Assembly (NCBI GenBank): GCA_044892525.1
Contig: CM097885.1
Coordinates: 155,124,001-155,188,000, forward strand
DNA: 64,000 bases
From: Schmidtea polychroa
Taxonomy: Eukaryota
Reading direction: 5' to 3'
Part shown: piece by piece, positions 2,894-32,149 of the stretch
Numbering within the stretch: the stretch's first letter is position 1
How the letters are laid out: every line of letters starts with the position of its first letter
Translations under genes and position numbers: made by a program
Notes under the pieces: generated by a model
What the model saw: the letters and a program-made list of their open reading frames with translations, nothing else
Told to the model about the DNA's origin: nothing
Database searches by the model: none

Positions 2894-4849
2894 AAAGTAA
2901 CGAGAAACGTGGAGTTGAACTACTCCATGTCATGGTGTGAGGTGCCTTCGGGAGCTCAGCCGGTGGACATGGAGTTTTTCAATCACGCAGCTAGATTGGG
3001 CCGAAATGTGAAGGCTTCTTCACGGGTCCAATTGCTGAAGGTGCGACTAAATTATCACAATGGGATATTGTTCAAGGAATAACAGGCAGACAATGATTTC
3101 ACAGAGATGGCCGTATGAACGGAGGGATTTTCGAGAATTCGCACAGTGATTGAGGGCGTCGCATTATTCTTTCATCAAGTCGTTTTCGTAAAGCTTACGC
3201 CTATCGAAAATTGAAATCCAGACAATGATTTAGTAAATTTCGTCAAAGGTAACGTCATCTCATAGTGCACTTCATCTGGAAACATGGTTTTATCAAATTG
3301 ATTATTACAACGTCTATTTTCCGAACTCAGTAAAACTAATTTCGTATGAAATTCCGTTATCACACATCCAATGTCCTTTAGTCTGTCCAGATTGCAAGTC
3401 ATGTTCCAAAAGTTTTCTAAAACTGTAACTATCTCAAAACTATAAAATGTAAGAGTCTACGAAAATCCTTCTAATATTATACTCCAAAATTATTATAAAA
3501 ATTTAATCATTTATAAACAGATAAAATACCAAAATTCCATCTAATAATATTTATTGTTACAAATGAGAACTAGGCTTTCACTTTGTCTACCCGAATTATT
3601 GAACGTATAACACTTGAGGGAAAGTTGCGAATGGCTAAGAGCAGGTTCCATCGAAGCGATATTTATTTTCGAAAACAACAACTCGACATCACGTCCGTAC
3701 AGCATATTGAATACATCGAGATAGGATCAAAATTGCAAGAAGCATAGTAGCCTGCCAAACGAATAAATTCCAACAGTATAATAAGAGAGCTGAACGTTAG
3801 AAAATTTCTTGTCGTTGGCTTCCATCGATCGTTTAGATAGTCAGAAAAAACCCCAGTAATAATGACGAAAACGAGAGAATCCATGATGAGAGATCACCGT
3901 AGCATAGATCAACGATTTTCTGAGACTAGTCATACGGTGAGAGTAGATTATGTGAGTAACCGGTTAGCGATAAAAAACATATTGAATAAGATAACCTCAC
4001 GGAATTTGCAGTGAAACGATCAGCAGCACGTTGACAGAGTAGGATACACGCGACAGATAGACATGCATGTCATGTAACCGACATTGAGAATACACACACG
4101 AGGAAGATAAGGATCTTCAACCAAAATACCGATTCTGCCATCTGATATAACGACATGAATTTTTCACAAGTCAATAACAGACAAGTGGTAGTGAATTGGC
4201 AGTTGCCTCGAGAGAAATGAAATCCATGTGTCCATTCCGCGCATGTTACTAAGATAGGAGTTGAGTAATATTGCAGTGCAAACTGATTAGATAATCCATA
4301 GTCGATATTTTAAGGCGTAAAAAATTCACCAAGCTCATGTACAGAATAATTCACTAATTAATCATCTCGAATGCTTAAAGTAACATAAGATTTAGGTGCA
4401 AAAATTCCCTCTAGAAATGGTAGCCATCGAGCGTAATAAATGATTTACCATTTTTAAAATGAATTATGATAACGGGGGGTAATAACATTCCTATTCAAGA
4501 TCGTTCTAATATTACGATTTCCTGATTGTATTAAATGGTATAAATTATATCGACCAACCGGTATCAGAAATGACAAGAAGATGGTTAGGATTTGTAAAGG
4601 TACCCATGAACCTGTATTAATCGAATTGCATTCGTCAAATCAGTATAGTTTGGTTGAGTAAAAATTTTTATCCGTCAAACTAGTATTATTTAATTGAATC
4701 AAGTAATTTTGTAAATAATTTAAATCGACGTGTAAGGAGATTCATTTTTGTTTATCGGCCGAATATCCACGAGCAGTCGATTATTCGTATTCCACGTATT
4801 TCTTCAACCATACATATATTACGTCTTAACCTTATTCTTTATAGCGAGC

Positions 4850-5599
4850 ATGATACCAGCTACCAAACCCGCGTTACGTCCGTGCTTCTCTTGCGCGGAT
4901 AAAAACGTCATTATCAAAGATCTGCAAACCCAGATTGGACGTTACAAAAGGAAGATAGACGAGCTGGAAGGGACATGGTTTAGTCCCGCTCGGATGAAGG
5001 AGACCCAGAAGAAGCTCTACCGGAGCGAGCACTGTCGAGATGCTTTGATCGCTGAAAGTCGCTCCCAGAGGAGCTTGATCAAGGAGCAGTCCGAAGCACT
5101 GCATAAAGTTTATCTGCAAGCAACTACCACCCGGAAGATAGTAAAAATCCCGATCAAAGACGCCGACGAACTCTTTCCGGCGCACCATGATATTTCGTCA
5201 AAATTGTCGTCTCCTGCCAAGAAGTCCTGCAAGGAATGCGTAGAGACCCAGCTCTCACCCAAACAGCCAGATATCATTTTCATGGGTACAAGTCAGGTAT
5301 CCCTGGTGCTCGCCTCTACGTCTAAGGCGATTCCGACCAACACAGCAACATCCAAACCGAAACGTCGGCAAATGTCTAGGGCTGAACGAAAAAGAAAACA
5401 ACGAGAACGGATGGTTGCCAAGTCCAATATACCCCTATCGAACCTCGTAGATGTAGTCAACGTTCCTTCGGTAACAGTAGTCCCCACATCTGAAGTGACT
5501 GGGCGAATTATCTCTGCCGCCGGAATCACTTGGGAAGAGAACGCTTCCGAGTTTTTCGACCTCGAAGAGCTGTTAGCCGCCACTGAGTGGGAGAAATGA
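4850..5599 (+). CDS. ORF-X copy 1: unknown ~249-aa protein (CxxC, coiled coil, CxxC, basic NLS-like tract, acidic-hydrophobic C-terminus)
   Basis: First ATG at 4850 within ORF 4748..5599. About three-quarters identical by eye to 8292..9059 over the N-terminal ~150 aa, with many synonymous differences. Confidence 0.75.
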   Translation: MIPATKPALRPCFSCADKNVIIKDLQTQIGRYKRKIDELEGTWFSPARMKETQKKLYRSEHCRDALIAESRSQRSLIKEQSEALHKVYLQATTTRKIVKIPIKDADELFPAHHDISSKLSSPAKKSCKECVETQLSPKQPDIIFMGTSQVSLVLASTSKAIPTNTATSKPKRRQMSRAERKRKQRERMVAKSNIPLSNLVDVVNVPSVTVVPTSEVTGRIISAAGITWEENASEFFDLEELLAATEWEK

Positions 5600-5899
5600 G
5601 AATACCTTGTGGGATAATTCTGCCGATGGCGAAATCAACGAACTAAAATCATGGTGTTGTGTTTTTCTCATCTGGTCATCTTATGCTGTATACACTTTAC
5701 GGATATTGTATAGATATGATATTGCTACAAATAAATCTTTGCGTCTTGGTACCAGTTCGTTTTATAAACGGTATTAGTATGACAATAATAACGAGAGTAG
5801 GAAGTTTTTTTTTTGTTTTGTTTTGTTTTTTCGAGATTTCAGTAGAATTAGCTAGTCGAATCCCAACCAAAGATAAACAGTGAATTTTTAACTTGGATG

Positions 5900-6140
5900 G
5901 ACGTAAGACCTTCTATCGGCAGTCGAGGATGGTAAGTCGAGGCCTCAGTAAGGAGTAGTTCTAAGGCAGGGGCTCACCTGCTTACTGGCGTCTCGCCGGC
6001 ATGGTACAGTACCAACGTGAGGTGTCTCACGGGTATCATGTTGGAGGGAAGGTTATGCGGGGCTCTGCTCAGGGTTGACACCGTGGTGACCAAAATAATC
6101 GTACTGGACATTCATCTCCTAGACTAGAAATTGGAATTGT
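5900..6140 (+). other. Conserved block D downstream of ORF-X
   Basis: CGTAAG..TTCTATCG(G/A)CAG, AAG(G/A)AGTAGT and CAGT(A/T)CCAAC shared with 7780-8010 (rc) and 18905-19080. Confidence 0.6.
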
Positions 6141-6311
6141 GAGTGGTNNNNNNNNNNNNNNNNNNNNNNNNNNNNNNNNNNNNNNNNNNNNNNNNNNNNN
6201 NNNNNNNNNNNNNNNNNNNNNNNNNNNNNNNNNNNNNNNNNNNNNNNNNNNNNNNNNNNNNNNNNNNNNNNNNNNNNNNNNNNNNNNNNNNNNNNNNNNN
6301 NNNNNNNNNNN

Positions 6312-7728
6312 GGGAAAGTTATTTATGGAAAAATTATAAATTATAGTTTTATAAATTTGGTATCTGTACATATATAAGTTAATTTATTACTATAAATATT
6401 GTTTTCGACTATTCGGTAACTTAGGGGGGTAGTTAGGGAAAATTTAATAATTTATAATTTTATGGATTTATTTTCAATTTATAAGTAATTTAAATCAGCA
6501 CTCTTAAAATTAATTTGAGCTATCATACTACTTAAGGGAGGCACCTATGAAAAAAAGTAAATTATACTTTTATAAGTTTAATATGCTTATATATGCTTTA
6601 TATTATTAACATAAGCCCCTTTTGATTATGATATAACTTAGGGGGATACTAATGAAAGATTACAAATTATACTTTTATAAGTTCAAATTATGCAATTATA
6701 GTTTAGAATATTACTTTGAACATGTGTTTTGGCTATTTAGGAAAATTTTAGAAATTATAGTTTTATGAGTTTATTATACATGTATGTATTTTAGATTAGT
6801 ATTTTTAACATTGATTTTGACCAGAGGTGGGGAACCTGCGGCCTTTTGGCTATTCTAGTGCGGCCTTTTGAGTAATACCGATTTTTTTATTTTTTGGTAA
6901 TTTTTTGTGTGGTTTCACTTTACGCGATCGAGAAAAAATGTTTATGATGCATATGAAAGGTTTACCGATTTTGAAAAAAATGAAACAGCAATGAAATTGG
7001 CGTTTCAGCCTCACCTAGTTGAAATCAACGAGGCACCTATAGATCTACAGATGGAATTAATTGAACTCTCTGTTGATGATTTTTTAAAATCATTGTTTAA
7101 TACTAAAAAAAACCCAATTGAAATTTGGAAAACTGCTTTAGAATATCCACGTCTTCGACAACATGCCAGAAAAATGCTTTCTTGCTTCTCAACAACTTAC
7201 TGCTGTGAATCATCATTTTCTTATTAAACGCAAATAAAGTCCAAATTACGAACTCAAATAACTGATCAACATTTAGAAGACCAACTGATACTGCGAACGT
7301 CTATGCTTGAACCGAATATTCAAATGCTTTCTAACAAAAAGCAGAAGCAAATAAGCCATTAAAAGTTGATAAATTGAAACATTAACAAATATTTTTAATG
7401 ATGTACAATGTATATATGTATTATGTTTTATGTATGTATAACATTTTTTTAACAATATACAATATAATAAATTAGATTTGTAAATATATATTTTTTTCAT
7501 AAAAGATTATTTTAAATTGCGTTTTGGCTAATTTATAATGTGAATTAAAATAAACAGTTTATAGGGGGGGGGGGGGGTTAACGTTTTATTTACTGCGGGC
7601 TTATGTTAAATCAGATAAGTGAAAGTGGCCTTTTGAAATGAAAAGGTTCCCCAGCCTTGATTTTGACTATTATACAACTTGAAGGGAAAAAAATAAAAAT
7701 TTTCTTAGAAAATTAAAATACATACTTA
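6312..7728. repeat. Degenerate tandem repeat of the family I type, interrupted by a hAT MITE
   Basis: TTAGGGGG...TATGAAA...AATTATA..TTTTATAAGTT units similar to 700-1240. Confidence 0.55.
6822..7659 (+). mobile_element. Non-autonomous hAT (Charlie/SPIN-type) element with transposase C-terminal fragment
   Basis: TIRs CAGAGGTGGGGAACCT / AGGTTCCCCAGCCTTG; perfect 8-bp TSD ATTTTGAC (6814-6821, 7660-7667); hATC-like motif STTYCCESSFS followed by an in-frame stop. Confidence 0.9.
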
Positions 7729-8291
7729 TGTTGCGGGTATCTACTCGGACGACCCCCTTTTAGTACAGCTTTTAGTCTAGAGGATGAATGCCCACATCGA
7801 TTACGCTCGTCCTTATTTTTGTCATCGCCGAGCAGGACCCGTACATAACCTACACTCCAACATAGCACCCGTGAATCGCTTCACGTTGGAACTGTGCTAT
7901 GCCGGCGAGACGCCAGTAAGCAGGTGAGCCACCTCCTTCGGACTACTCCTTACTGAGGCCTCGACTTCCTAACCCTGACTGCCGATAGAAGGACTTACGT
8001 CTAATCATTCCGTCGCCCCATCGCAATGTTTCTAGTTGGGATTGCCAACTGACTGATGCTCCTCGTTTTCTGCGACTCTCAATGCTATTCACCAATTTCA
8101 TATCAACTGTCTTAAGATAAAACAAAACACGTATGCAGACGAAAATGGTTTATTGTTAGAATTATTATACAAATATATCGAAAACTTATACAACAAAATT
8201 CACAAGAACAGGAAAAAACACAAGGATAGAAAATGATATCAGAAGATGTTCAGGTCTCTCTAGAGGATGAGGCCATTTTACGGGGAAGTTC

Positions 8292-9059
8292 TCATTTTCC
8301 CCACTCCGAGTCGGCGAGTAACTCGTCTAAATCAAAAAATTCGGCGGCGTTTTCTTCCCATGTCACCCCGGCGGCGGAGATGACTCGCCCTGAGATTCCG
8401 GTGGTTAGATCGACTACGGTTGGGTTGCTGTCGCTGTCGACTGGAGTGACGGTCGATGGTATAATCTGTTTGATGGAAGCCCGCTCTCGTTGCTTTCGTT
8501 TACGTTCGGCGCGTGACAGCTGCCGACGTTTAGGTTTTGAAGCTGCTGGTGTTTGCACGGTTGATGAAGATGCGATGTTTGACTTGCTAGTCCCGGTAAA
8601 TACAATATCTGGACCTCTGGGAGAAAGCTCGGTCTCCACGCACTCACGGCAAGACTTCCCGAATGGAGATGAAGACCCGACAGAGGTATCGTGGTGCGCT
8701 GGGAAAAGATTACTGGCTTCACTAATTGGGATCTTTGCGATTTTCCTAGTGGTTGCTGCTTGGACGTATAATTTATGCAGCGCCTCCGACTGCTCTTTTA
8801 TTAAGCTTCTCTGCGCCCGACTCTCGGAAATTAGCGCATCACGACAGTGCTCGCTTCGGTATAACCTCTTCTGAGTCTCTTTCATCTGAGTGGGACTAAA
8901 CCATGTCCCCTCTAACTCGTCTATCTTTCTTTTGTACTTTCCGATTTGGGCCTGCAGATCTCTGATGATTGAATTCTTGTCTGAACAAGAAAAGCAAGGT
9001 CTGAGAATGGTCTTGGAATTGGGTAACATCTTGGGTAGCTGTGAAGAAAAGATGGACAT
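8292..9059 (-). CDS. ORF-X copy 2 (255 aa)
   Basis: Open frame homologous to 4850..5599 (RPCFSC, GTWFSP, RSEHCRDALI, SRAERKRKQRER, WEENA.EFFDL.ELL). Confidence 0.8.
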   Translation of the reverse strand: MSIFSSQLPKMLPNSKTILRPCFSCSDKNSIIRDLQAQIGKYKRKIDELEGTWFSPTQMKETQKRLYRSEHCRDALISESRAQRSLIKEQSEALHKLYVQAATTRKIAKIPISEASNLFPAHHDTSVGSSSPFGKSCRECVETELSPRGPDIVFTGTSKSNIASSSTVQTPAASKPKRRQLSRAERKRKQRERASIKQIIPSTVTPVDSDSNPTVVDLTTGISGRVISAAGVTWEENAAEFFDLDELLADSEWGK

Positions 9060-9349
9060 GAAAAATAAATTAAATCAATTAGAAACGTCTTCATCTGGTC
9101 ACCTTTATACTTTACTGATCATAGATAGTTTCGCAGACAAAGTGGGTTTATTAGCCGAAGGAATTCCCCTACGTTATGGACTTGTTGTTCACCTTGGGTC
9201 ATTATTTATAAGAACATAAATCAGTCAAGCACGATTTTACACCAGGGAAGTAAGGTACTACTACTGATAAGAAAAATTCTAGGTCGAGGAAATTACGATT
9301 TGGTTAATTCACTTGAAGATAGCAAATAGCATTTGAAGAGAGTTGAATC

Positions 9350-12300
9350 CAGGCCCGACGCTAGAGTATTTGGCGCCCTAGGCAAACTAAAAAAATGGCG
9401 CCTCTAGTCTAGAAACAAACCCAATAATTAAAGAAGTAAATGAAAATAAAATAACTATACTTCATTTATTTATTACACAAAAATATATATAAAAACAAAA
9501 ACCATTTAAAATTTAATTTTTCGTGCTTTTAGTTTAGCGAAATCTTCAAGCAGCAACTTCGTATCTATATCACGCGCCATTTCGTGTTCAATCGACAATA
9601 TTGCTAATCCCACAAGCCGTTCTTGTGACATTGTAGATCTTATATATGTTTTGATCTGTTTAAGCTTCGAAAAGCTTCGTTCACCGCTTGCCACAGAAAC
9701 TGGTAGGGTTAATAAAATTCGCAAAGCAACAAATATATTTGGAACGCTGTCCACTATATTATTTTTACAAATATAATTAAGTACATCTTCCGGCAATAAG
9801 TTTTTTGGAATATGTCTAGCTATAAATATCAATTCGTTCAATAAATCTGTACCATCAATATCTTTAGAATCATCGTGCCGTAAAAAATTTTCAAGTTTAA
9901 GACAATCCTCTAATATTTTCTTTGACGAAATATATTGCAAATTATGTATGTTGTATAGAAATCCAAATGTTGAATTTATCGTTGACATTTGGGTGAATCT
10001 TTGCTCAACAGATTTTTAAGCTCTATCCAAAACTGCGAAGTAAAAGCTGATCTTAAATTTTTCTTTTGGGTTCTGAATGGGCTCATCGTTGGCTTCATAT
10101 TCGAACTGTTTTTTTTGTTTTCTGATACGCTGAGTTTGTTTAAAGATTGGGGAAATTTCTGATTCTTCAGCAAGTTCTCGCGCATCTACCAATATTCTTT
10201 CAAAACCTTCATCATTTCGGGAGTTGAATAGAAATTTTTGGTATCTTCTAGTAGCTTCATAGCATCTTGAATATTAATTTTCTCAGATTGAAGTTGTTTG
10301 CTTGTAATATTTATGTTGAAAAGAATATCATACCAGATAATAACAGAAACTACAAACTCGAAATTCGAAATAGCTTTAGCAAGGCCCTGTGCTTCTATAC
10401 GTGAAGTATTACCAGAAACTCCTGTTTGAGAAGTATCTTGAAAAATATCAATAAGTGCAGCAATAACTTTACTTAGCTGATAGCGTAGAGGTTTAAGGGC
10501 ATCGATTCGGCTCTCCCATCTTGTATCGCTCAATGGCTTCACTGTCAAGTTTGAAGCATGACGTTTTAAAACTTCCCATCGACGTGTTGAAGCGGCAAAA
10601 TAGACATATATTCGTTGCACTAACATAAAAAATGATGTAGCATCTAAACAACAGCTTACAGCGTCATTAACAACCAGATTCAAAGAATGCGCAGAACAAG
10701 GAACAAATAGTGCTCGTGGATTTAGATTCAGAATTCGCCGTTGCACGCCATTTTCTTTGCCTTTCATATTGCTACCATTATCGTATCCTTGGCCACGCAA
10801 GTTCTCAATAGGTAATGACATATCTGCTAACATCTGAACGATTTCATCGGTCATACCAGCACCAGTTGTATCTGTTAGTTTCACAAATCCCAAAAAATGT
10901 TCTCTTATGCATATGGGATCTAAATCACAATTTTCTGTATTTGTATGGACAAAACGAATAATCAACGTCATTTGTTCAGTATGGCTAACGTCTGGTGTGC
11001 AATCCAGGATTATTGAAAAATATTTAGCCATGGAAATCGATTTTAAAATTTTTGTTTTAATACTCTTAGATAAAAGTTGTATTAACTCATTCTGAATATC
11101 TTTTCCCAAATAATGAACTTGTGTTTCATTGTTCTTTATTCTGCGAAGATGCTCACCCATAATTGGATCAAAAGAGGCCAAATATTCTACAAAGCTAAGG
11201 AAGTTTCCATTTCCAGGAGAATACAATTTTTCATTGCTTCCGCGAAATGCAATATTTTGCGTAGCAAGCACTTTAACTAGACCTATAAGACGCTCTAAGA
11301 CTTGTTGCCAGTGTCTCTCTTCTTGTTTTATGAGACGCAAATTATCCTGGTCAATAGTTTTATTCTTTTTTAAACGCAATTCTAGCTCCTTCCAAGTTTG
11401 AAAATTAATTAAATGATCCTTATTTTTCTCATGTCTTTCTAAAATTACAGACATATTTTTCCAATCGCTTGATCCTTTATCGGAGAGATGTATTACACGC
11501 TGGTTATTATTAAAAATTTTGCAACAAAAGCAGAAAGCCGAATTAGTTGTTTTGGAATACTGTAGCCAATGACGCCGCATTTCTTCTCCATTTGCAAGTC
11601 TCCTTCTATAAAAATTCATTGAAAATTTTCTATGGCTCTCATTTTGAGGAAAATCAAATTCTTCAATTTGTTCTGGTCCGTGTTCAACCAAAATTTGCCT
11701 CAAACGGCCAGAACGTAAGTCATGTGAATTTAACCAAGTTGCCGGATCACTATAATCAAGACTCGAATTTACGCTTTCTAATATTTCCAAAGTTTCATTA
11801 ATTAAAATTTCTTCAGTGTCTTCTATAGTTTCTAATACAATTTCTTCTATAGGTTCTTCAACAGTTTCTTCAATTGTTTCAACTTCAGTTTCTTCTATAG
11901 TTTCTTCCACATTCGTATGTGGAAACTCAGTCAAAATAGGCACCTCTGCATTTCTAGTTGTAGAGTTCCTATCCATTTGCTCTTCCAAATTGCAGTATAC
12001 TTGTTTTCTCGGAGTCATTTCATTTCGATTTTTATCTTGTGATTGTTGACGACAAATATATTTCAGAAAAGCACCTTCTTGCTTTTTTTCTTCATTTTTC
12101 TTTTCAGCTTTACGTTTTCTATTTTGTGCGCCAGATAATTTTTTTCTATCTGCCATTATGCTACCTCAAGTAAAAATTAATAGAATATAATAGATTTAAT
12201 AATAGGTGTAGAAAAATCCAATATAAATTAAATTACTGTGTTGTATATATGTAAAAATTATACTGGAAGTACGACCGAAATTATATATACTTTAAATAAA

Positions 12301-12901
12301 AAAAATTTGAGCCCTGCACTAATTAAATTTTATTTTTTTTTTCACTTTCTGTTTATTTATTTTTTAACTTTTTTAACATTTACTTTAGTCTTTTAAAACT
12401 TTACTGCATGTGACTTTATTCTTTTAAAATAAAACTAAAAATTATTGCGTAATTTAAAAAAATTTCAGAGCATGCTATATGCTAAATTTTTTTTAAAACC
12501 GCTTTTCAGTTAACTTTTTTGAACTTGCAAAATATTTTTTTAAATCGATTTTCCGTTGTATTTTTTTAAATTTTAAAAGAAATAAGTAATCGGTATCGGA
12601 CTAAAACAACGATGNNNNNNNNNNNNNNNNNNNNNNNNNNNNNNNNNNNNNNNNNNNNNNNNNNNNNNNNNNNNNNNNNNNNNNNNNNNNNNNNNNNNNN
12701 NNNNNNNNNNNNNNNNNNNNNNNNNNNNNNNNNNNNNNNNNNNNNNNNNNNNNNNNNNNNNNNNNNNNNNATCAATATAAAGATAGAAAGTTTATAAAAT
12801 ATTTAATTTACTTGATAAAAAAAGCAGAACTATTTGGCGCCCGCTTGTAAATCGGCGCCCTAGGCTGCTGCCGACGTCGCCTATGCCTAAAACCGGGCCT
12901 G
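9350..12901 (-). mobile_element. hAT transposon (ZMYM1-like/DUF4371 type) inserted in family II copy 2
   Basis: TIR CAGGCCCG / CGGGCCTG; perfect 8-bp TSD GTTGAATC (9342-9349, 12902-12909). Confidence 0.95.
9506..12156 (-). pseudogene. hAT transposase, disrupted
   Basis: TTF-type zinc finger (FCFCCKIF), IILDCTPDVSH, GQGYDNG, CSAHSLNL, DTRWESR, SGERSFSKL. Frameshifts at ~10230 and ~10110 and an in-frame stop near 10020. Confidence 0.9.
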
Positions 12902-14149
12902 GTTGAATCAAATTACTGACTTATCCCAAAACAAATAATTTCGATGTGTAGATCTTATACATAGGTCGATTAATTTTAGATTAATTATTTAAGGTAAATA
13001 GGAATCTGTAAATTGCTCTTGAATAGTTTATGTATGATAAACGGGAATTTATTAATTAATTTTCAATTATTTATTTATTATAAACGAAAATTTGTCAAAA
13101 TTGAATAAATAAATTAATTAATCCCACTAAGGGGACTCAAAAGGTCTGTCTGACCGCTGACTATTATTTCCGACCGGTGGGAATCTAGTGGCTGTCCGCG
13201 GTTTAATTTGATAACTGAAAATTCCAGCTGACACGTCCGGTCTGATTTTCTACGAGTAATAGTCAGTGTAAATCTACACACTGCGATTAACCGCTGTAGT
13301 GAGTCTAAAACGTGTGACGCCTGAAAATTTTCTCTCACGTACTTATCTTCAATCATAATCACTGACTGGTGTTCTCAGTCTGGAATCTATATCGTGTGCC
13401 TATGTAATCCTGATTGACCAGCTGCGTAAATGCTCAAACTCCACTTCACACGATGTTGGCATGCTATCTCTCACGGAAATTTTGGAAAATTACGATTCCT
13501 TGCATTGCTAATGTTGGATATAATTTGCTCCGAGGATGGATTATGCGACCACTCAAATGCTATTTATCAATCCGTTCCCGACGATTTGGAAATTTATTGC
13601 CTATCTCATCGCTGGGTTTTTCAACTCAATGAAATGCAGATATTTTACATTTAATAAGTAAGAATTATCATGCTAAATTGTTTTTTAGAAAATATATTTT
13701 TCCGGACTAGAGTTATTTGCATTGTACGTTTAAAAATTATTTGAAACTAATCATTTTATGTAATTCTAAAAATTATTTGAAACTAATCATTTTATGTAAT
13801 TCCCTACAACTACACCTTTAAGAGAACATACAGATGATGAAAATAACAGTTACGAAAGGTCGTAGGCTGAAAATTAGTAGGAATAAATTTCGAGGGTAAA
13901 ACATGAACACCGATGGTATGTCACATATAGTGATACTAATGTTTGAACGGTTTTGACAACACAAAAAAACTTGCATAGATCGTTGGGATGATAGAGAAAA
14001 TTTGAGCTTGGTAAAAACGATATCGTGATACGATAGTGCGACACCCTCAATCACTGCGCGAATATATAAAAACTCTCTGATTCATTTATACATCTCTGTT
14101 TTCGATCGCTGTATGACTACCAATTTTCTAGCAAAATTTTTCTATAGAC

Positions 14150-14300
14150 TTTAGTCGCACCTTCAGCGACGGACCCGTGAGGAAGCCCCCACATTACGGC
14201 CCGAATCAGCTGCGTGATTGAAAAACCCCATGTCCACCGGCTGAGCTCCCGAAGGCACCTCACACCATGACATGGAGTATCTCAACGCCACGTTTCTCGA
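14150..14300 (-). ncRNA. Conserved UUCG-capped hairpin C, copy 2 (copy 1 at 2900-3050)
   Basis: CTCCATGTC...C-TTCG-G...GACATGG(A/G)G; the 52 nt are identical between copies except one change that keeps a G-U pair. Confidence 0.5.
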
Positions 14301-16350
14301 AAATTTAAGTAGCATTAAATAATAATTCATAAAAATCAACAATTCATAAAAATCAATAATTCCTAGAAATCAATAATTCATAGTCAATCATTTATTGTTA
14401 AATAACTAAATCATTTAATTAAGCAAAGTATTTGAATCAAGCGAAAAGAAAACAAGTTCTTTAAATTAAAAATATAATTAGTTCATACGCATAACTATTA
14501 CTTAAAAGTTCAACATATAAAATCAAAAGATCCTTACCGAGTGTTTAATATGAGTATATAGGCTGAGTCGAAAAAGTACTGGGTCGAATTAATTAATGCT
14601 CGAATATTGTATAGATTCAACTGAAATTTCTTGGATCCTGAAATAGTCCTCGTAAGTTGCTCTGAGTTGGTTGTTTAATTGTGAGTTGCTGTTTCTTCGG
14701 CAAATTTATCTATTGAAGTTGTTAGATTAACAGTAATCATTATGATTTTAATGCCTGCTTATATATTAATTTTTTGTTTGCGCGGACCAATCAGAATTGA
14801 GTACCGCTTAATTTTACTACTTTAATTTATTTTTCTTGTTTTTGAGTTATTTCTTCCTATTTTCTTTATTTTTATTGTGTTTTTATTTATTTTCCTTAAT
14901 TTCCTTATTATCTACTATATTTTACGTTATTTTTCGTCATTCTATTGTCCTATTTTAATTGTTCTTATTTTTATATTTTTTGTTTTAATTCTTATTTTCT
15001 AATTATTGCTTTTTCTTATATTCTATTTTATTTTATTCGTCAATCTATTTATTTTATTTTTTTATTTTACTTTAGTTAAGTTTAACCTGATTTCCCAGCT
15101 ACCCTTCGGCTCAGCCCAACACTTAAGAGAATCTAGTATATATAATTTATATATATAATCATAAGGTTTTTGTTATTGCTACACCTCTTAGGGGTGGGAC
15201 AGTTGTACCTGAAAGTCTATATTTTCCTTGGTTTTGATTTATGCTTTATGTTGAAATAATATTTATGCTTGCAAGTTATCCATGTAGCCTTGTTTTAGTT
15301 ATGATGGAGAACACTTTTACGGTAGATCGATTTTGTGGATCCCTACATCATATCTAGAGAAAATTTATGCCTGTAAAATATCATTTCAACAACTTTTGAG
15401 ACGAATGAAAAGAACTTTCAATGGAAATTTTTTTTGTTATGAATCTATATATTGTAATTACATAACATTTGTGTCGACAATTTACTTTTTATAGCTATTC
15501 AACTTAGTATAGAATAATGTGAAGATGTTGCCCGAATTTATAAGTTATAGATATAATATTAGTAGTTTATAGATAAAGAAACTTTGTCAATATGTTGACG
15601 GGAATTTTGCGCATACCAGAACCATCTACGATAGAGAAATTTAGTTTGCATCAAAATAGGTTATTTTGTGGGCATCTATAGATATTAGTTCGCTTACCAA
15701 TGCGATTGAGATTATATCATCTTAGGTCCTACTCATCGCATGAACTTTAGGTTGCAATATTCTGACAGGAAATAGTTCAGAATTTTTAAGTCTTTAAATG
15801 CCTTAAAAATCTTTGCGCAGGGATCTCCCTGTTATTTAGAGTTAATTAGTTTCTTAGGTTCACTTTGACTTTATCGTTTAAGAGGGATTCGTTTAGAAAT
15901 TACCAGCTACACTAACATGTTGTATTGTGTGAAATTTGAGTCAGGGGATATTTCCCGTTTATCAGTTACCAATGTTGTGTGCAAAATAGTATAATTTAAG
16001 TGTTATTCTAGATATGTAAGTTAACGAAAAGATCGATTTAATTAAAATTTACCTACTTTCCCGACTACACTGAGTACGGTACGATAGGCCCTATTGTGTT
16101 ATTTACCCGCGATTAGTATCCCAAAAATTGTTTCGTCCGCATAGTCCCTACGACTATGCCAACTACCAAGAAGGATTTATACGCCCTACTTCTGGTTAAA
16201 CACCATTTGTTCGTGGCGACCTCTGGCAGTTGAAATCATTTTAATGCATGTAAGGTCGTGGACCCGTAATCATTGTGATAAAGTGCATAGATGCAGGGTT
16301 GACTTGTATCTCGCTCAAAAATCAATGATAACCGACGATCTCACTCAAAC

Positions 16351-16938
16351 CTACACCTCTATAATCAAATAGAAATAACGAAAACAACGTTTCAATAATT
16401 TATAATTCACAATGAAATCGTCCTTACTTACAATCCCAGAAAATCTCAAAATCAAAATCAAAATGGAACCTGTATCATTAGCTGCGATGATTTTCTGGAC
16501 TTGAAATTTCTCAATATCTGCCTCATTTGCTGGTGGAGGACCACTCTGTTCAACTTGATTCATAATACTCGTTAGAAAATTGTCGAAACTTTGATCTAAA
16601 AATATGTAATCTGATGAATCGGATCTAAAATCCAGCGGCAGCAATCCACCAAATAAATTTGATATTAGTTGGCCAAAAATACTATTTCTGTTATCAGGAT
16701 CTCTTGGAGTCATAAAAAAGGAACCATCAGTTTCGTTTGTAGTACTTCTATTTTCCATTGAGTTATCACGACTAATATGAAAAGCATTCAAGGCATCATC
16801 ATCATTTTCCATTGAGTTACCATGAATAATTCTTTCAATAAATCCATCATTGCACGTCACACATTTACCATCCTGAGATATGTGAACGTCCCTGTTGCAT
16901 TGAATATCATAGTAATTATCTTTATTAATTGAAGTCAT
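16351..16938 (-). CDS. Intronless RNF126/RNF115-like ORF with degenerate RING
   Basis: N-terminal zinc ribbon YYDIQCNRDV..KCVTCNDGFIE; SDY..LDQSFDNFLTSIMNQVEQSGPPPA; the RING start reads GIVSKDDF instead of CxVCKDD(Y/F), with the later Cys/His ligands missing. Confidence 0.7.
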   Translation of the reverse strand: MTSINKDNYYDIQCNRDVHISQDGKCVTCNDGFIERIIHGNSMENDDDALNAFHISRDNSMENRSTTNETDGSFFMTPRDPDNRNSIFGQLISNLFGGLLPLDFRSDSSDYIFLDQSFDNFLTSIMNQVEQSGPPPANEADIEKFQVQKIIAANDTGSILILILRFSGIVSKDDFIVNYKLLKRCFRYFYLIIEV

Positions 16939-17223
16939 TAAAGAACCAAAATCCGAATATCAATTTTATTAACCTTCGCGCAAATTCAAATTCACAAAAA
17001 CCATTTTTAAATTTAAACAACAATTCTACCAAACTTCCAGAATTCGAAAAACTCCAACCATCCTAAAATCGATACAAATCCAAATCGACACGACAAAACA
17101 CAAAACCTGACTAATAATTCGACACAGTTGTCCGCGTCTGTGTGCGCACACAAATCAAAAACAAAAGCGTAAGAAAGCGCACACAGACACGAGAACCGAT
17201 AATTAACCAGTAAGCATTGAAAA

Positions 17224-17270
17224 GTGACGAAATGTGTTAGTTTATATAGCCTCTGTTTGACGTGTAAGTA
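17224..17270 (-). promoter_or_regulatory. Putative TATA promoter upstream of the RNF126-like ORF
   Basis: CTATATAAA followed ~24 nt later by TCAC; homologous to 2217-2263. Confidence 0.5.
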
Positions 17271-18337
17271 TACATGCGTGTTGTGTACTGACACATTTCG
17301 TCCCATTTCTAACTTTGGGTTTAGAAATCAGTTCTAGCCCAACACCTCTCATCAAAACCAAAAAAGAAAATATGTCAAACATTCAAGAATCTGAAGCCTT
17401 TGTTTTCCTAGCTGTGATATCTCTGTTGATGAGCTTGATCATGAACACCTTCTATTCCATCAAAGAAAATTTCCTCAGATTATTAATTCGCGATTCTAGT
17501 GATTCTCCTGATATAGTTTGTTACGAGAACCGGACTGACCCATCCGTCTTCATTCAAAAGGAGTTAATGAACAAAGTTATTCCAAATAAAGATTCCAATA
17601 CTTTGACATCGCACGTTACTGGAGTCTACATGCCCAAATGCAAGTTCATCAACAATCTCAGTACAATTGCCAGATCAAGAGTCTATGCTTTCCTGTGAAC
17701 ATTGACTGCTGGAGCAAATATTTCCATGATCGCTTTCAATGTCGTTTACAATAAAAACTTTATTCAAATTACTAATTAGTTCATGTCCTTACAATGTGTG
17801 CTGTGTTTATATGTAAAATTATTATTCTGCCACTTTCTCAATTTCTATATAAAAACTTTTAAGTTTTTACACGCATGTAAGTTTGTGTGTTCCTCTACTA
17901 TAACTTAATCATTTTTTTATATTACAACTACTGCCAGTTGGAGTGATGAGCCTTGCAGATAAATAAATTTTCTGATACCGCGTCTTTACACACGACACAC
18001 CTTGAAGGGAATGGAAACCAATAAAAATAAGATAAATTGTGCGGAGCATGAAATGCACATTAACTGTCACCTTTCATTAATTAAAACTCTCTAAGCAAGG
18101 ATCATTTCTGGAAAATAAATTTATTTTGTTTATTTGATCATTTATAAATCAATATCCCTTCACTCGCTCAACACCTATGAAATCAATAACGTCTCCCATA
18201 GGGCATAATTTTGGCTGTTAAGCAGGGTAAGTTATCGAGAATGAGAAGGAATGACGGATGGGATTTTATTTATTTTTGCTTATTTTTGGTTATAGTGACA
18301 GGTCCATCAAAGAGATTTAAACTAAACGCATGATACC

Positions 18338-18810
18338 AAATTAAAGGATCAAATCAGAAATATCCAGACTGAACTCAAGAAGACTATCTGGTTCACTCCC
18401 CAGTAAGTTCACGTCCCACAACAGAAAGTCTTTAGTCTGAATAAACTCGAGATAGACTCGTCACAAAGAATAGAGTGCAACGGTTGCTAATCGGCGAGCA
18501 AAGTAGGGCCCTCGTGGCAGTGTTTACTGAAAACGAGCTAAAGTGTCTGATTTCGAACTTGAAGATGGTAGAGACTTGTAACGTGATACTCATCAAATAA
18601 ATCCCGGATGCTCCGCCGCAAAAAGATGTAGTACCAACCATAATTCCGTTGGGAATCCGCAAAGGGATATAACCGTGTAAAGGGTGACGCATGAGACGAA
18701 GGAGGAGACTGAAAAAGCAAATCCTACAGAACCTGTATCCCAGAGGAGAAACCTGGAGTAAGGCCAACGAGGAACGAAGTAAGCTGGACGACTTTAAGCT
18801 GGGACTTTGA
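18338..18810 (+). pseudogene. ORF-X copy 3, disrupted
   Basis: KLKDQIRNIQTELKKTIWFTPQ*, then in another frame RDRLVTKNRVQRLLIGEQSRALVAVF (cf. RDALIAESRSQRSLIKEQSEALHKVY), basic tract RRRRRLKKQ and GETW; stops and frameshifts. Confidence 0.65.
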
Positions 18811-19084
18811 TTTTTGAAAATGATAATGCGTCAATGTTATGTTAAAAAATATGATTGGGTATGACTAAAGGGTTAAAGCAGTAAGTAAATACAATTTGTG
18901 AGCTAAGCAGCGTAAGCCATTCTATCGACAGCTAGGAATCCGAAAGTGAAATAGCAATAAGAAGTAGTTCTGGCAATGAAACTAACCTGGTCATTGATTT
19001 TCGGCCACTATGCACAGTACCAACATGGTAGTTTCCATGAGTATATGGATGGTAGATAAAGATAATAATCACGAAGGCAGTTAA

Positions 19085-19317
19085 CCCTACACTGCATGAC
19101 TTTTTATATTTGATTTCACTTAAACTGTAAGACGTTTTAAAAATTGATTTGGTAATACAAAACTATTGAGAATTACATTACGGTTTTTTTGTATTATATT
19201 GCAAATATAGCCAATACAATGTAATATGAGAGAACATTTACCGAGAACAAGAGCGAGACAGTTTTTATTCTAATAAGATAATTGTGTATCACCAGTGATA
19301 CAATATGCAGTGTAGGG
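19085..19317. mobile_element. piggyBac-type MITE (233 bp)
   Basis: TTAA|CCCTACACTGCAT ... ATGCAGTGTAGGG|TTAA. Confidence 0.9.
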
Positions 19318-20145
19318 TTAAGGAGGAAATGATGATAAAAATACACCCTAAGTACCAACAAAGTATTTTTTTAAATATATAATATTTTTTGAAATTTTTA
19401 TTTTGGAAAAATTTACTTTTAATGTCTTTGTTAATCATATGCTGTTATTATTCAGACATCAAGGAAAGAAAATATGACTACCTGACATAAAGTAATGATG
19501 TGCGTGTAAGGGTCAATAATAAAGGCCAAAACCAGAAATTTACAAAGGAATACATGTTATATTGTCAAATTTTATAAAAAATGTATTTTTGGCTGAAAAT
19601 GTGTCTGCATAAAAAATTGACAGCAAAACGCTAAATTTAAGTGCAAAATAAGAAAATTATGATTTTTTAACATAGAAAAATGAGTAGCATTTCTAAATTA
19701 TCGATAGGCTTCTAAACTACTTCGTTGAATGAAAAATGCTTCAGTTAAAATTGTGCAACCAAATCAATATCATTTTAGTGGTATTTGTGATATTCAAGAA
19801 CTTTTCCACAAATAGATTTTTAAACATTCTGTAACTCGATTTTTCACATTTTTAGAGATTTGTAGCAAATTGGTTGCAAGCCGAAGTTTGCTCATAACTG
19901 AATAAAATAAATCATTTGCCACAATTACTGGTGACCCTTAAGCACTCCGGAAGGGACCAATCAAGTGACAATAATAAATGATTCACGAAAAGTCCCCTTA
20001 TAAAAATATTAAGATAACATTTCATAAATATTATACCTGAACTCACAGAGAAACTCTAAAGGAAAAAATATCAATACAAAATGCTCCACCATAAAAAATA
20101 TTGGAAAATCTAATGGAAAAACTCATTGGTTTATTAAACAAATGT

Positions 20146-23100
20146 TTATTTCTCAAAATGTGGAGAGAATGCGTCTAACTGGTGAGATAATATTTCTTCT
20201 CGATCAGATCGGTTTGACAAGTCAAGCCAATTCTCCCGGGCTGCCGGGTCAATCGACCTTATCGGAACCGTAAATCTAGTACGGTTAACAGGGGGATGCC
20301 GTTTTGGTCGATATTTGAGAGCGGTGAGATTCGGATTGGATAGATCAGAATTAATCGATGAGCGCGATGACGGAATCGATCCGACCGGTGATTGGCCTGG
20401 TGATCGCTGGTCCATCAATATATTATTCGGCACGATCGTCATGGTTGAGCTGCTCGAATACAATGATGTGTCTTTCCGTTCCAAAGGCAAGATTACGACT
20501 GTCGATCGTTTTAGTAATGGCTTTCTTCGTTTGAGATTATCAGCTGGTTTTGTTACCGGTTCATTTTCATTGACCATTTCACGTGAGCAAGTTCGTTTGT
20601 TGCAAAATTCCATATCAAATTTCAAATTCCCGTAAACTGATATGTAGGCTTGTGTGTTGCTTGTTACAATATCCCATTTGTGATGGCACGAGTGTTGAGT
20701 GTCGAAAGCTGGATGACATTCCTTTAAACTGTGTACATGGGTACCAATGCAACTCTTATTTCCACTGTGATGTGATTGAATACATCTATGGTGATCGTCA
20801 TCTTGATCACTACTAGAGAATTTTGAGGAGGTGGAAGTAATAGAATCTGATCGATTTAATAGGCTGTCATCTAATAGATCAGAAGATGTTATATTTGAGA
20901 GATCTGAATCATTTAGTAAATCTTCAATACTATTTCCATGTCCTTTATAATTTGCTTGAGCTTGGCTACTATTACTAAGACTTTGGCTGACTTTATCATC
21001 GATATAACTAAAATAACAAAATTATAATATTTTAATTAACGTTTAATTTCTACCTTGTTGAATTCAATCCAGAATCCTGAGATGCAAATTGATTTCGTTT
21101 GTTATCTTCTGAAAAATTAAAACTATTTAACAATGCGATAAATGCGACAATGCGATAAAATGCGACAATGTAATAAATGAATCACGAATATATAGTTACA
21201 TAATTAAATTCATGATGAATATGCATTTTTTAAAAACAATCAATACTTTAAATCACATTTTTTGATTTGTAAGTCTTTAAATAATATACTCCAATTCCTG
21301 ATTGGCACTGACTAAACCATTGATTTGAAAATAAATTAATTAATTCAAAGAACAATTTGAATAGTTCGTAAGTATATATAATTACTTAAACAATTTTCAT
21401 TTTTACCATAATTAAAAGAAAATTAATTTAATAATTTACTTTAATAAATAAAAAACATAGAAAGTATGTAAGACAATATTATATAATTTTTAATGTAATT
21501 ATTATTTGCAATTTATCACAGTTGATGCAATCTGATATTTATATTTTTTTGATTAAATTTTCTAAAAAGTACCAAATTTAGACTCTATTATATTGGAGTT
21601 ATATTTGAATAATTTTTCTCCGTACCACTCTGGATAGTCGAAACTCTGTTGATTTTAATTTGGGTAATATATTTAATTTCTTAATAATATTAATTATTAT
21701 TAGTTGGTCAACATTAAAGATAACTCTGTATAAACTAAATAATAATAGAAGTAATTCGTTACAAATATAATTATATAATGAAAATACATTATATTGTCAT
21801 CAAAAACACAACACTAAAAATGGTACATAAAAAATATAAATAAGCTATTTTCCACACATAAGTCGTCAACAAACATAGAATGGTTATATTTACAACTAGC
21901 TAATTAATAAACATTGGTTCATGTGATGTGAAATGAAATGTTTGATGAAATGTTTTCGAAATTCTATTTTTTATTGGTGTTCAATAAAATTCCGTCATAA
22001 AGTAAAAACCTTCTAATATTTTAAAATTTATTTATTAAACTATTGAGCGCTTTGTTATTTTGCAAATGTACCATTGGTGCTGGCTCGTCGATTTTGCTAC
22101 CACCGTGTTTATACGACATAAGTACTTTAATAATTTTTAAAAAATACTTTGATTTATATAAAGTTTCATTATTCATCATAGATTTGTTTTGGCGGCAATT
22201 GCACTCAAGCGAACTTATTCGTCAAAAACAGGAAGAATAGTAACGATTTGTAGGAAGAAATAAAGTCGTGAATGCTAGCCATTTAATTTAGAGATGACGG
22301 ATATATGTATCATTAAGTCTTTAACAGATTAAATTATTTGTGTGATGATGAGCATTTTGTATATTTGATGAAAAAATTAAAAATTTTCATTTAACATTTA
22401 ATTCAAATTTTTTAACTTGGTTAATTAATTTTTTATTGATTAATTACGATTTCACCTATCTACATTCTTTTAGATTGTAAATCAATCTGTTAAATAGAAA
22501 GCGTCATGGGCCAAACATTTCAAAAATTTGAAGGAAAAAAGTTGAATAGGCTATTATTGAATCTGCTATAGGCCTATTACACATTGGTGTCATATGCAAT
22601 ATAGATTAAATTTATTTTTAAACATATCAATTTCTTGTTATTTTTTTGTTGAATAGGCTATAGTATAAAAGAATTAGGGTGAACTATATTTATTATGAAA
22701 TTTGTATAAAATATATGATTACCAGTTTTTGAACTTATGTTAAAGCGAATAACATTTTTAGAGTAACTCATGTTATGAAAAATATGACTTTGACTCATGT
22801 AAAAATTCATTTCCGTTAAACACGCCAACTATAAATCATATTAATACAAAAAAATATCCTGAAGATGTACAATCTGTTGAAAAATTTCTGGAGGCAATTG
22901 TGATAAGTTTTAGTACTGATCACAAAATGACAGTAAAGTAAATTGAATGTGCTTGTTGGTACAACTTTTATTTTGTCCTTTATGATTACTTTTTTATTTG
23001 TCTTCATAATAAATTAAAAGAATTTAATATTATCATATAAGGTGATTAAATAAAAATTGAAGTCACATGGACAATTAGAGGTACAAATATAAAAATCAAG

Positions 23101-29714: not shown

Positions 29715-30560
29715 AACAAAGACCGACAGGAAACAGATACAGCCGGATTAATGGAATCGAAGATGAAGTGGAAATGGAATCGTGCGTAGAGACAAATGAA
29801 GTTAATTTTAGTAGGACGTACCCAAACAACATGGCTCCACCAGTAGAGGAGATGGTTGGAGCCATATACTAACAGAAAGTGGATAGGGGTAGAAAAGTGG
29901 GAGAATGTGGGAAGGGTAAGTGAGAAAGTATACAGGTTCCTAAGGAGAGAAAGGTTAGAAAAGGAAGTGGAAAGAATTGGAACAATTGAAACAGGACAGG
30001 AGGTAGAAATTGTATATAACAAGCTACAGGGAAGACCTAGTGTAACAGTAATGATGAATGGGGAAATTTTCGAATGTTTATTAGACACCGGAGCACGAAT
30101 AAACGTAATGAGTGTGAACTGTTTTAACAAGTTACGAGGACAACAATTGATGAGAAGCGACGATAAGTTACGATGTGCAAACGAAAGTACGATAGAGACA
30201 ATTGGAAGAACAAAGGTTAAAGTAACTATCGGAGATATTTCTAAGGAAGTTAGATTCATTGTGGCGGAGAAAGTGACACCAGATGTGATTGGAGGAGTAG
30301 AATTACAAGAAGCATTTGGATATAGGCTGGCAAAAAAAGAAAGATATCGAATCTAGTGAAAAAGACAAGAACTATATTTGTAACATTGAAGCAAAATTCG
30401 GCAGACAAATAAAGAATGGAGAAAGATTGATGAGGATAGTAAATTAAAGGAAATAATAACGAACAGTGGAAACGTGTTTATGGCGGATAAATGGGATGTG
30501 GGTCGCACATAAGATAATTACAATAGGTGAACCGATAAACATAAAACCATATCGTCAACC
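29715..30560 (+). mobile_element. Ty3/gypsy gag-protease fragment
   Basis: Aspartic protease CLLDTGARINVMS, later IILGxDF-equivalent VIGGVEL and INIKPYRQP. Confidence 0.85.
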
Positions 30561-31227
30561 ATTGAATTTGGAAACGGATGTTCTCACGGATGAGAATCCT
30601 AATAGATATATTTATAATAATTATTATATAAGGATATTTTACGACCATGTATTCATGTTAAAATATCCTCGCATATTTATTAATTTATATTAGAATAAAT
30701 TAGTTGTTAATTTATACTTTATCTTTTACAGGTACCTATTGTTTAAACAGTTGTACCCTGTGCCTTGTTGTTTCATTGTACTATTAGCAAAATTTGAATT
30801 TAAAGTTGTTTCAATGAGATGTTTTCTGATTTATTTACCTCTCAAAAAATTTCTAATGATAAATCAAAATCCATCTCAACTTTTGCGATAGAAATTACCA
30901 AATTAATAATTTTTCTCCAATTTGTAAACACTGATCAAATTTTTACAAATTAAATTAAATCGAATTTTTTAACCAATTATTTTACTTTTTATTAAATGAA
31001 TTTTTCAATAAATCAATAAAATATATGGTAAATTTTATTGATTAGAATAATAATAGAAAAAAATCGTTGACAGTTGTGCATAATTATGGAAATCCGTGGA
31101 TTTGAATGTCGACAAATAAGATTTAATTAATGAAATTTTAAATATTGGTAACGAAATAACTTGAAAATTTTTGATTAATTCAAAAATTAAAAAAAAATTA
31201 ACACTAGTATAAAATGTTGATAGAGTA

Positions 31228-31980
31228 CAGTCAACCCTCCTACAACGTGACGGATACGTTCTTAGGAAACGTCGCGTTGTAAGAGACATGAACTCTATAG
31301 ATAAAAATGGGTTAGGTTCCAAGTATAAAAAACTGCATTTAAATTAATAAAATGAAACTTTAATAAGTTAATATTCAAGATTTTATTAGGAAGTCTTCAA
31401 TAAAATTATAATAAATTAATAAAATTTAACAAAATAATTCATATTTTTAAAAATTAAGAACTAAATAAAAATTAAAATTTATAAAAATTAAAATATAAAA
31501 AGAAATGTTGATGCATATTATTTATTTATTTATCTTCTTTATCACAGCTAAGCGGATGCTACTTAATTCCTAATTTTTTCTTCTAATTGTTGACTCATTT
31601 AAATTAAAATATTTGGCAACATCAAGTCTTCTTTTGATCTTTAAGCCTATCCAAAATTTGAATTTTGGTTTAAAGTGAAATAAATTTTCGGATTTTTTTT
31701 TCATTCGGCATTTTGAATGGTATAATGATTTTTTTCCTATAAATTTAAATTATATAAATTTAAATTTATAAATTTATTATATGTATGTACATATAATAAA
31801 ATTTCTTTTCATCCTAAATTTACTTTAACTGCCAAACACACACACATTTCTGTATTTATACACTGATTTATTTAAAACGTACATTTTTTTAAATCGCGTT
31901 GTAGGAAAAAAAACTCGTGTTGTGAGAAAAATTGCCCTAATTTATAAATCGCGTTCTAGCGAAAACTCGTTGTAGAAGTG
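31228..31980. mobile_element. Tc1/mariner-pogo (Tigger-like) MITE, right end truncated
   Basis: TA|CAGTCAACCCTCCTACAACG with the partial inverted end CGTTGTAGAAGTG. Confidence 0.55.
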
Positions 31981-31987
31981 TATGGCT

Positions 31988-32078: not shown

Positions 32079-32149
32079 GTTTTACTGTAAATAAATATAG
32101 AATAAAATTAATTTGATTATCATTAAAAATGTTTCATTCTCCAGAGAAA

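Follow-up and report, generated by a model that had tools for sequence, protein, structure and literature searches.

Long terminal repeats (LTRs) of Ty3/gypsy elements are usually regarded as non-coding control regions. In planarians, this group includes the Burro elements, which exceed 30 kb in length and have internal regions of up to 25 kb and accessory open reading frames (ORFs) (PMC6431247). In the present study we analysed a unit located at positions 7729-15121 of a 64-kb stretch of Schmidtea polychroa DNA (hereafter the window; contig CM097885.1, positions 155,124,001 to 155,188,000), which shares with the LTRs of animal Metaviridae the end consensus, AATAAA and a GT-rich tail (PMC3601003), as well as the length of the target-site duplication (PMC12440569). 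We consider that this 3.8-kb unit is probably the solo LTR of a very large Ty3/gypsy-type retroelement and, on balance, we favour the whole reading, i.e. a giant solo LTR of this type that encodes a trans-regulator. The unit is bounded as follows:

7725..7728, target-site duplication, left copy CTTA
7729..7735, minus strand, 3' end of the unit, CGCAACA, in agreement with the LTR consensus YNYAACA (PMC3601003)
15113..15121, minus strand, 5' end of the unit, TGTTGGGCT, in agreement with TGTTRNR; the same sequence marks the ends 2893 and 17344
15122..15125, target-site duplication, right copy CTTA

The left junction reads CTTA followed by TGTTGCGGG (7725-7737), and the right junction GCCCAACA followed by CTTA (15114-15125). 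This bears out the TGTTG/CAACA ends (7729 and 15121) and the perfect 4-bp duplication (7725-7728 and 15122-15125) described in a previous sequence-only reading of this DNA. Removal of a nested hAT transposon leaves 1,621 + 2,212 = 3,833 bp, as anticipated (~3.8 kb), and a motif scan of the element detected no gag/pol motif inside it, again as that reading had stated. The sense strand of the unit is the minus strand, and the GC content of the window is ~30%, which, like its RhoGAP exon, hATs, gypsy remnants and Polinton-like element, would be in keeping with a planarian.

The same reading had counted two more copies of the element, at 2900-6147 and 17345-19360. Judged from the alignments, these are diverged, incomplete sister families and not copies: the first, in the orientation opposite to the focal unit, matches it in three blocks only (78%, 68% and 79% identity) and lacks its 5' part, which is replaced by another element (Y1, described below), while the second is decayed.

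2894..6147, plus strand, sister-family member: block B 2901-3186, acceptor-like site 4844, intact 249-aa ORF 4850-5599, AATAAA 5730, block C 5900-6129; its 3' end lies in the gap 6148-6311
17345..19360, plus strand, decayed distant member: acceptor-like site 18295, broken ORF from ATG 18330 to ~18830, block C core 18911-19044 (block C E-value 2e-7), end ACCAACA

For the third member (17345-19360), no block B was detected and no target duplication could be paired. A profile built solely from nine database relatives of the encoded protein detects all three members in the window (E-values of 2.6e-26, 4.4e-23 and, for the third, 1.2e-13).

Taken alone, the terminal motif and the 4-bp duplication are weak proof of the ends, because 33 of the 2,476 motif pairs defined by the 7-nt LTR consensus have identical 4-mer flanks by chance in this AT-rich window. 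The corresponding level for TGTTG/CAACA pairs 1-15 kb apart, over the whole window, is 24 of 1,930, and position 7604 is one such chance motif partner with a matching flank. To this extent the CTTA match could be the coincidence that had been feared, but three features support the ends: (i) TGTTGGGCT occurs exactly three times in the window (2893, 15121 and 17344), compared with 0.14 expected, (ii) at position 7729 the GC content steps from 0.26 to 0.47, and (iii) the likeness of block C to the sister extends to 7762, ~35 nt from the left end. Further support comes from the third member, which terminates with CCAACA downstream of its own block C. The proposed ends rest on the relatives that share them, rather than on the duplication; with the ends fixed independently, a random match of the 4-mer flanks has a probability of 0.008. 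The unit is a real mobile element.

The single CTTA duplication, representing one insertion only, is within the 4-6 bp range of gypsy elements (PMC12440569). TGTNR ends and a 4-bp duplication are also features of Ginger DNA transposons (PMC2836005), and movement by a Ginger integrase had been proposed as an option. This option fails on both terminal repeat length and target sequence: the inverted repeat is 5-7 bp long, as against 40-270 bp in Ginger1 and 50-180 bp in Ginger2 (PMC2836005), and the target ACTTAA (duplication CTTA) is neither CCGG/CCGT (Ginger1) nor RTATAY (Ginger2/Tdd). The unit also lacks a transposase, and we consider its being a non-autonomous Ginger element very improbable. 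TRIM (terminal-repeat retrotransposon in miniature) and LARD (large retrotransposon derivative) elements consist of two direct terminal repeats with a primer-binding site (PBS) and a polypurine tract (PPT) inside. A TRIM/LARD-type element was rejected, since self-comparisons revealed no terminal direct repeat. There are no terminal repeats inside the unit, no PBS- or PPT-like flanks around it, and no second near-identical copy or direct-repeat partner within the window.

The element had been credited with genes of its own; we found one gene only:

8292..9029, minus strand, intact ORF encoding 245 aa (255 aa if read from the unconserved ATG 9059, 8295-9059)

The previously described 255-aa frame is indeed open (8295-9059), but the protein is probably 245 aa long and starts at ATG 9029, because the sister has no counterpart of ATG 9059, which itself falls inside a pyrimidine tract. 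Over 244 aligned codons, the two intact ORFs of the window are 69% identical at the amino-acid level. Identity amounts to 73%, 82% and 46% at the first, second and third codon positions, respectively, with 0.24 nonsynonymous (dN) and ~2.4 synonymous (dS, saturated) substitutions per site. The ORF is under strong, long-lasting purifying selection.

A search of 1.84 billion representatives revealed nine relatives of the protein (29-39% identity) and profile searches added two, giving 11 in total. The family has in common the motifs GTWxxPE, ESRxQRxxIxxQS and NxIPxxH and an arginine-rich stretch. For eight of the 11 relatives, the gene model also includes an unrelated host-type domain fused to the family protein (subtilase, SNF transporter, glycine cleavage P, actin, CRAL-TRIO, tyrosine phosphatase, L21 and ABC), and the remaining three carry no Pfam domain. 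Two relatives, P0001 and P0007, have the same four residues preceding the Met and diverge farther upstream, which is consistent with a shared splice junction. The host-protein fusions show the pattern expected of a mobile exon with its own acceptor that was taken up by gene predictors. The fusion models among P0001-P0011 are probably annotation artefacts, or else represent real exon trapping.

Other searches placed the protein in no described group. A single-protein word search gave no relative among 607 candidates, Pfam gave sub-threshold coiled-coil matches only for both intact ORFs, and a sequence search of the PDB gave one match (E-value 2.1). In the ESM Atlas the best value for the window protein was 0.83, residues 1-200 of P0005 had no usable feature match, and structural template-modelling scores by query were 0.45 or lower. 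Foldseek against viral and PDB sets returned nothing at an E-value of 0.001, VIA-align returned generic coiled coils only (best Z 6.6), and none of 284 pattern matches in prokaryotic genomes was confirmed. By these comparisons, the protein belongs to an unnamed orphan family. In the open-access papers searched (Repbase being outside their scope), neither this protein family nor a gypsy LTR containing a gene was found to be described, and the excerpts of PMC11410931 and PMC13238120 contain nothing on LTR genes; given a by-eye likeness to the planarian GLT2 probe (see below), the DNA of the element may already be catalogued in Repbase.

Apart from the ORF, two stretches of the unit are highly conserved in the sister:

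14014..14299, minus strand, block B, non-coding, long hairpin with a CUUCGG loop cap; putative U3 RNA element
7770..8001, minus strand, block C, non-coding, two hairpins, opens with CGTAAG; putative R/U5

Block B is identical to the sister at 136 of 151 positions (90%, with a 52-nt identical run) and block C at 143 of 171 (84%, with a 32-nt identical run), i.e. far above the third-position identity of the ORFs, although recent recombination between the families could also explain such values. One frame of block B is open for ~45 codons in both members; a coding role for B and C was rejected: third positions are saturated in the true ORF, yet the 52-nt run is identical at them as well. In folding windows picked after a sliding scan, block B reached a z-score of -2.93 on the ORF strand (1 of 200 shuffles as good) and -1.19 on the other strand (20 of 200), and the hairpins of block C a z-score of -3.41 (none of 200). 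Two-sided changes preserve four of 54 pairs in the B hairpin and four of 39 in those of C. In a search for retrozymes or other known structured-RNA families (hammerhead, twister, HDV-like and others), Rfam gave six matches for positions 1-21000 of the window, all with E-values of 0.49 or worse and under the gathering scores. Blocks B and C and block D of a neighbouring element family (see below) showed no mutual match by profile.

In the AlphaFold model, two helices (residues 26-52 and 56-108), a basic one (183-199) and short ones at the C-terminus are separated by disordered stretches (predicted template-modelling score of 0.32); the protein comprises a coiled coil (~25-105), an Arg-rich helix (183-199, in the 255-aa numbering) and an acidic-aromatic tail. 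Residues 18-128 were modelled as a parallel in-register homodimer with a score of 0.54, compared with 0.02 for the best control (contact agreement between runs of at least 67%, predicted local distance difference test of at least 78). Of known homodimers, 21 of 30 microbial and 7 of 16 animal ones come up to this mark, whereas none of 23 monomers does. Nine of the 11 aligned rows of the family contain 6-11 Arg within 17 residues. The predicted dimer, basic helix and acidic tail point to a nuclear activator.

A solo LTR could also encode an export factor of the Rev/Rex/Rec/Rem type, which would multimerise on block B, at the 3' end of the genomic RNA, and export unspliced RNA. Relatives carry an Arg-rich motif of the NRRRRERRR form, an oligomerisation domain is modelled, a spliced mRNA is predicted, the block B hairpin is strand-specific, and the response element of mouse mammary tumour virus (MMTV) is located at the junction of env and the 3' LTR (PMC2661877). 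However, Rev-like factors require, besides an Arg-rich domain and oligomerisation (PMC10746203; PMC2661877), a leucine-rich export signal (PMC10746203), and one scan for this pattern found it in neither of the two window proteins and in three of 11 rows at unrelated positions. The Pfam REV family matched a single row of the 11 (19.1 bits, cut-off 22), and the third member has no detectable block B. This identification is distinctly unlikely in our estimation; a Tat/Tas-like protein is likelier than a Rev-like one, because no export signal is conserved.

The protein might instead be a counter-defence or host-manipulating factor, acting e.g. against PIWI silencing or as a decoy for coiled-coil/bZIP factors, with hairpins that serve dimerisation or packaging and are unbound by it. 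Gypsy-related LTR elements are prime targets of SMEDWI-2 in planarians (PMC8532177), Burro elements bear host-regulatory domains (PMC6431247), and the neighbouring element Y2 has a host-like zinc-ribbon ORF; no sequence or fold link to known suppressors was found, and we regard this role as unlikely.

The interpretation of the unit as an LTR relies, besides its ends, on a set of putative RNA-processing signals:

9039..9062, minus strand, splice-acceptor-like site, AG-free pyrimidine tract plus CAG, 9 nt ahead of ATG 9029
8110..8185, minus strand, putative border of U3 and R: AATAAA (8154-8149), a GT-rich stretch behind it and, ~16 nt upstream, AT-rich DNA weakly resembling a TATA box
14758..14791, minus strand, upstream promoter-like motifs, inverted CCAAT (14791) and TATATAAG (14765)

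An AG-free pyrimidine tract ending in YAG precedes the start codon in each member (9 nt before ATG 9029, 5 nt before 4850 and 34 nt before 18330; pyrimidine fractions of 0.80, 0.75 and 0.75, respectively). At a cut of 0.75, chosen after these values had been seen, such a site lies within 40 nt of 43 of the 2,113 ATGs in the window (within 12 nt for 19), compared with three of three members. AATAAA followed by a GT-rich stretch is present in both intact members (8154 and 5730), but not in the decayed third one. In all three, donor-like CGTAAG opens block C, downstream of the ORF (focal GT at 7998). TATA-like candidates occur at 14765, 9210 and ~8170, none of them clearly conserved. The candidate splice acceptors and donors are a newly recognised feature of the element.

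The order acceptor, ORF, poly(A) signal, donor would suit a two-LTR provirus that splices from its 5' LTR to its 3' LTR: a donor beyond the acceptor and the poly(A) signal is useless in one unit but well placed in a two-LTR element. Read along the minus strand, the LTR would then begin with its 5' end and a long U3 (block B, acceptor and ORF). The poly(A) signal would follow, close to where U3 meets R, and after it block C, which would form the structured beginning of the genomic RNA and supply the splice donor, and finally the 3' end. The present unit would have been left behind by LTR-LTR recombination. In a transcript initiated in the 5' LTR, splicing would join the block C donor to the acceptor of the 3' LTR and remove gag-pol; with its end at the 3' poly(A) site, this would be a short mRNA for the 245-aa protein. 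This protein would regulate the element in trans from the nucleus, as a dimer held together by the parallel coiled coil modelled at its N-terminus. Its arginine-rich helix would serve nuclear import and bind one of the hairpins of B or C, and its acidic-aromatic tail would bring in host machinery and raise expression. Even if the unit is taken to be a solo LTR, this activator mechanism is tentative and stands somewhat below an even chance.

The unit could otherwise be a complete non-autonomous one-gene cassette, made up of an upstream promoter, an intron, the ORF and a poly(A) signal between integrase sites, that has no parent provirus and is mobilised in trans by gypsy-type machinery, with B and C as replication or packaging signals. 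Three members within 20 kb and 11 database relatives, none with gag/pol, fit such a cassette, as does the intact ORF kept in two members; a single unit could also supply its acceptor from the CCAAT and TATA motifs close to its 5' end and the donor-like sites 14537, 13474 and 13338. However, reverse transcription would call for paired repeats, a PBS and a PPT inside the unit, and cut-and-paste transposition for long inverted repeats, none of which is present, and the donor-like motif conserved in three of three members sits downstream of the ORF. Solo LTRs, moreover, often exceed full elements in number (429 versus 162 for rice Retrosat2, PMC3485330), so that finding only solo units in 64 kb is expected. 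A cassette of this kind is a minority explanation, which we hold to be improbable.

Several observations weigh against a regulator-encoding solo LTR. The giant protein-coding solo LTR proposed by the sequence-only reading has gained support from the ends, from AATAAA with its GT-rich stretch, from the lack of terminal repeats inside and of PBS- or PPT-like flanks, and from the acceptor-donor order, but 64 kb contain neither a paired LTR nor a gag-pol body, and the 3.8 kb far exceed the mean LTR lengths of 174-695 bp in animal gypsy training sets (PMC3601003). None of the 11 database relatives is fused to gag/pol; the search for longer relatives covered lengths of 437-2,000 aa with 8,000 candidates scored, which leaves room for a fusion to a giant polyprotein such as the 4,900-aa one of Burro/GYPSM1. 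The third member, in which no block B was detected, ends with ACCAACA, one base off the YNYAACA consensus. As regards the processing signals, the tracts of the two relatives (0.75) fall below the cut of 0.80 that was tried first, the full GTAAGT is present in the focal member only, and the window holds 97 occurrences of GTAAG. Only a weak TATA-like signal precedes AATAAA; better TATA boxes are present at 14765 and 9210, with donor-like sites between them and the acceptor, so that the gene might be expressed from a single unit. Coiled-coil dimers can score through likeness to solved coiled coils, and the acidic-aromatic stretch is clear in only six of 11 rows. Finally, the conserved hairpins noted earlier do fold better than shuffles, but the covariation in block C is not significant (38 of 500 shuffles equal it, with two sequences).

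The focal unit is interrupted by a transposon and lies within a cluster of other elements. The remaining features of the unit are:

9350..12901, minus strand, nested hAT DNA transposon (Pfam DUF4371 1e-19, Dimer_Tnp_hAT 4.5e-12), ends CAGGCCCG
9342..9349, hAT-made 8-bp duplication GTTGAATC, second copy at 12902-12909
14582..14625, weak 44-bp motif common to Y1 (1739-1782), 32 of 44 positions identical

The transposase of the nested hAT (12153-9509) is disrupted by one frameshift and one stop, and an assembly gap (12615-12770) falls inside this transposon. A small hAT derivative with an 8-bp duplication (ATTTTGAC) and a C-terminal transposase remnant is located at 6822-7659, 70 bp from the focal element, and a longer hAT of similar type at ~40987-42855. 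The 44-bp motif scored 40 against a maximum of 35 in 40 shuffles and was not seen against Y2.

Y1 (1634-2893) and Y2 (15918-17344), both on the minus strand, represent a second element family that has the TGTTGGGCT end in common with the focal one, and each adjoins a focal-family member head to head. They share a terminal match of 67 bp (85%) and a conserved 350-bp block D (261 of 353 positions identical; best folding window z -5.7, in Y2). Their far ends and target duplications were not found in the window. Y2 has a TATA box at 17248 and, absent from Y1, an ORF (16351-16940, minus strand) with a zinc ribbon (Pfam PF14369, E-value 7e-4, below the cut-off) and a GPPPA motif, features that correspond to the N-terminal portion of RNF115/RNF126-type ligases, the RING being absent; it is possibly a captured host gene within an LTR-like unit. 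The region 6312-6820 was considered as a continuation of Y2 (likeness to 830-1185), which was unsupported (score 101, shuffle maximum 100).

Degenerate gypsy-type remnants occupy 29847-38900: a protease (plus strand, ~30.1 kb), CCHC knuckles and a reverse transcriptase (minus strand, 33.5-34.1 kb), and an RNase H-integrase remnant (minus strand, 37.5-38.9 kb) followed by a purine tract and TGTAATGT. These gag, protease, reverse transcriptase and integrase remnants (29.8-38.9 kb) were rejected as the body of the focal element: a host exon separates them from it, they possess ends of their own, and no link was seen. A Polinton/Maverick-like cluster (59042-63990) encodes a double jelly-roll capsid split by a stop, an A32-type ATPase and a phospholipase A2-like domain fused to an integrase. 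Host exons at 20146-23696 (minus strand) include a RhoGAP domain piece (23166-23696) and a long Ser-rich exon-like ORF (20146-21021), and this RhoGAP-bearing gene appears to have the cluster of nested elements on its downstream side. A 115-bp repeat (76% identical) is present at 44430-44544 and 57202-57307, both copies starting near TGTTGGGTT, with CCCAACA at 57344 after the second. Positions 1-288 contain three copies of a 97-bp tandem repeat, followed by a long TAA-rich run up to 600. No tRNA genes were found.

If the favoured reading of the focal unit is true, a selected, spliced LTR gene with Rev/Tat-like features and accompanying hairpins would extend complex-retrovirus regulation to an invertebrate retroelement. 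Since the unit carries an acceptor, an ORF and a poly(A) signal, sense insertions in introns could hijack host splicing, and the family exon already contaminates the gene models of at least eight unrelated proteins in public sets. More speculatively, and in our opinion rather doubtfully, an invertebrate Ty3/gypsy lineage might have independently evolved a complex-retrovirus type of regulation packed into its LTR (a spliced dimeric Arg-rich activator plus RNA targets) that also hosts other cargo (Y2), its solo LTRs being portable exon traps or cassettes that regulate intact elements in trans and truncate host transcripts.

Among known systems, Burro/GYPSM1, compared by description only, are similar in being giant gypsy-type elements with implied multi-kb LTRs and accessory ORFs, but their accessory domains are described within the polyprotein or an upstream ORF and not as an LTR gene (PMC6431247). 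Rice Retrosat2, RIRE3 and RIRE8 and plant elements with an extra ORF (aORF) likewise combine LTRs of more than 3 kb, many solo LTRs and an orphan extra ORF, which is, in contrast, described in the internal region, either ahead of gag-pol or in the interval from pol to the 3' LTR (PMC3485330; PMC7264820). On its opposite strand, the probe for GLT2 of Schmidtea mediterranea contains, as seen by eye, an AT-rich stretch ending with an acceptor-like AG (PMC8532177, Table S1) and then a helical frame with TWxxPE and KLxxxIxxL, in register with the motif best conserved in the family, a by-eye lead only, from 400 of 485 characters; the second family motif, ESRxQR, is not evident (PMC8532177). GLT2 is mentioned as a silenced transposon (PMC10954484), and if the family includes it, this would provide a tie to a known tissue-specific PIWI target.

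In MMTV, the sag gene sits in U3, as is proposed for the focal gene. Further likenesses are a very short R region (11 bp; PMC3601003) and a spliced Arg-rich regulator (Rem) with a response element at the 3' LTR (PMC2661877). MMTV belongs, however, to the betaretroviruses, and its LTR has about one third of the length of the present unit. Its Sag is a membrane superantigen (PMC2661877), and no sequence similarity was found. HIV (human immunodeficiency virus) Rev and Tat, HTLV (human T-cell leukaemia virus) Rex and HERV-K (human endogenous retrovirus K) Rec share with the proposed regulator an Arg-rich RNA-binding/import motif and, as predicted for the latter, oligomerisation, a structured RNA partner and a spliced mRNA (PMC10746203; for Tat, general background). 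The focal protein differs from them in that it has no conserved export signal, possesses a long coiled coil and an acidic tail, and has its coding sequence wholly in one LTR exon.

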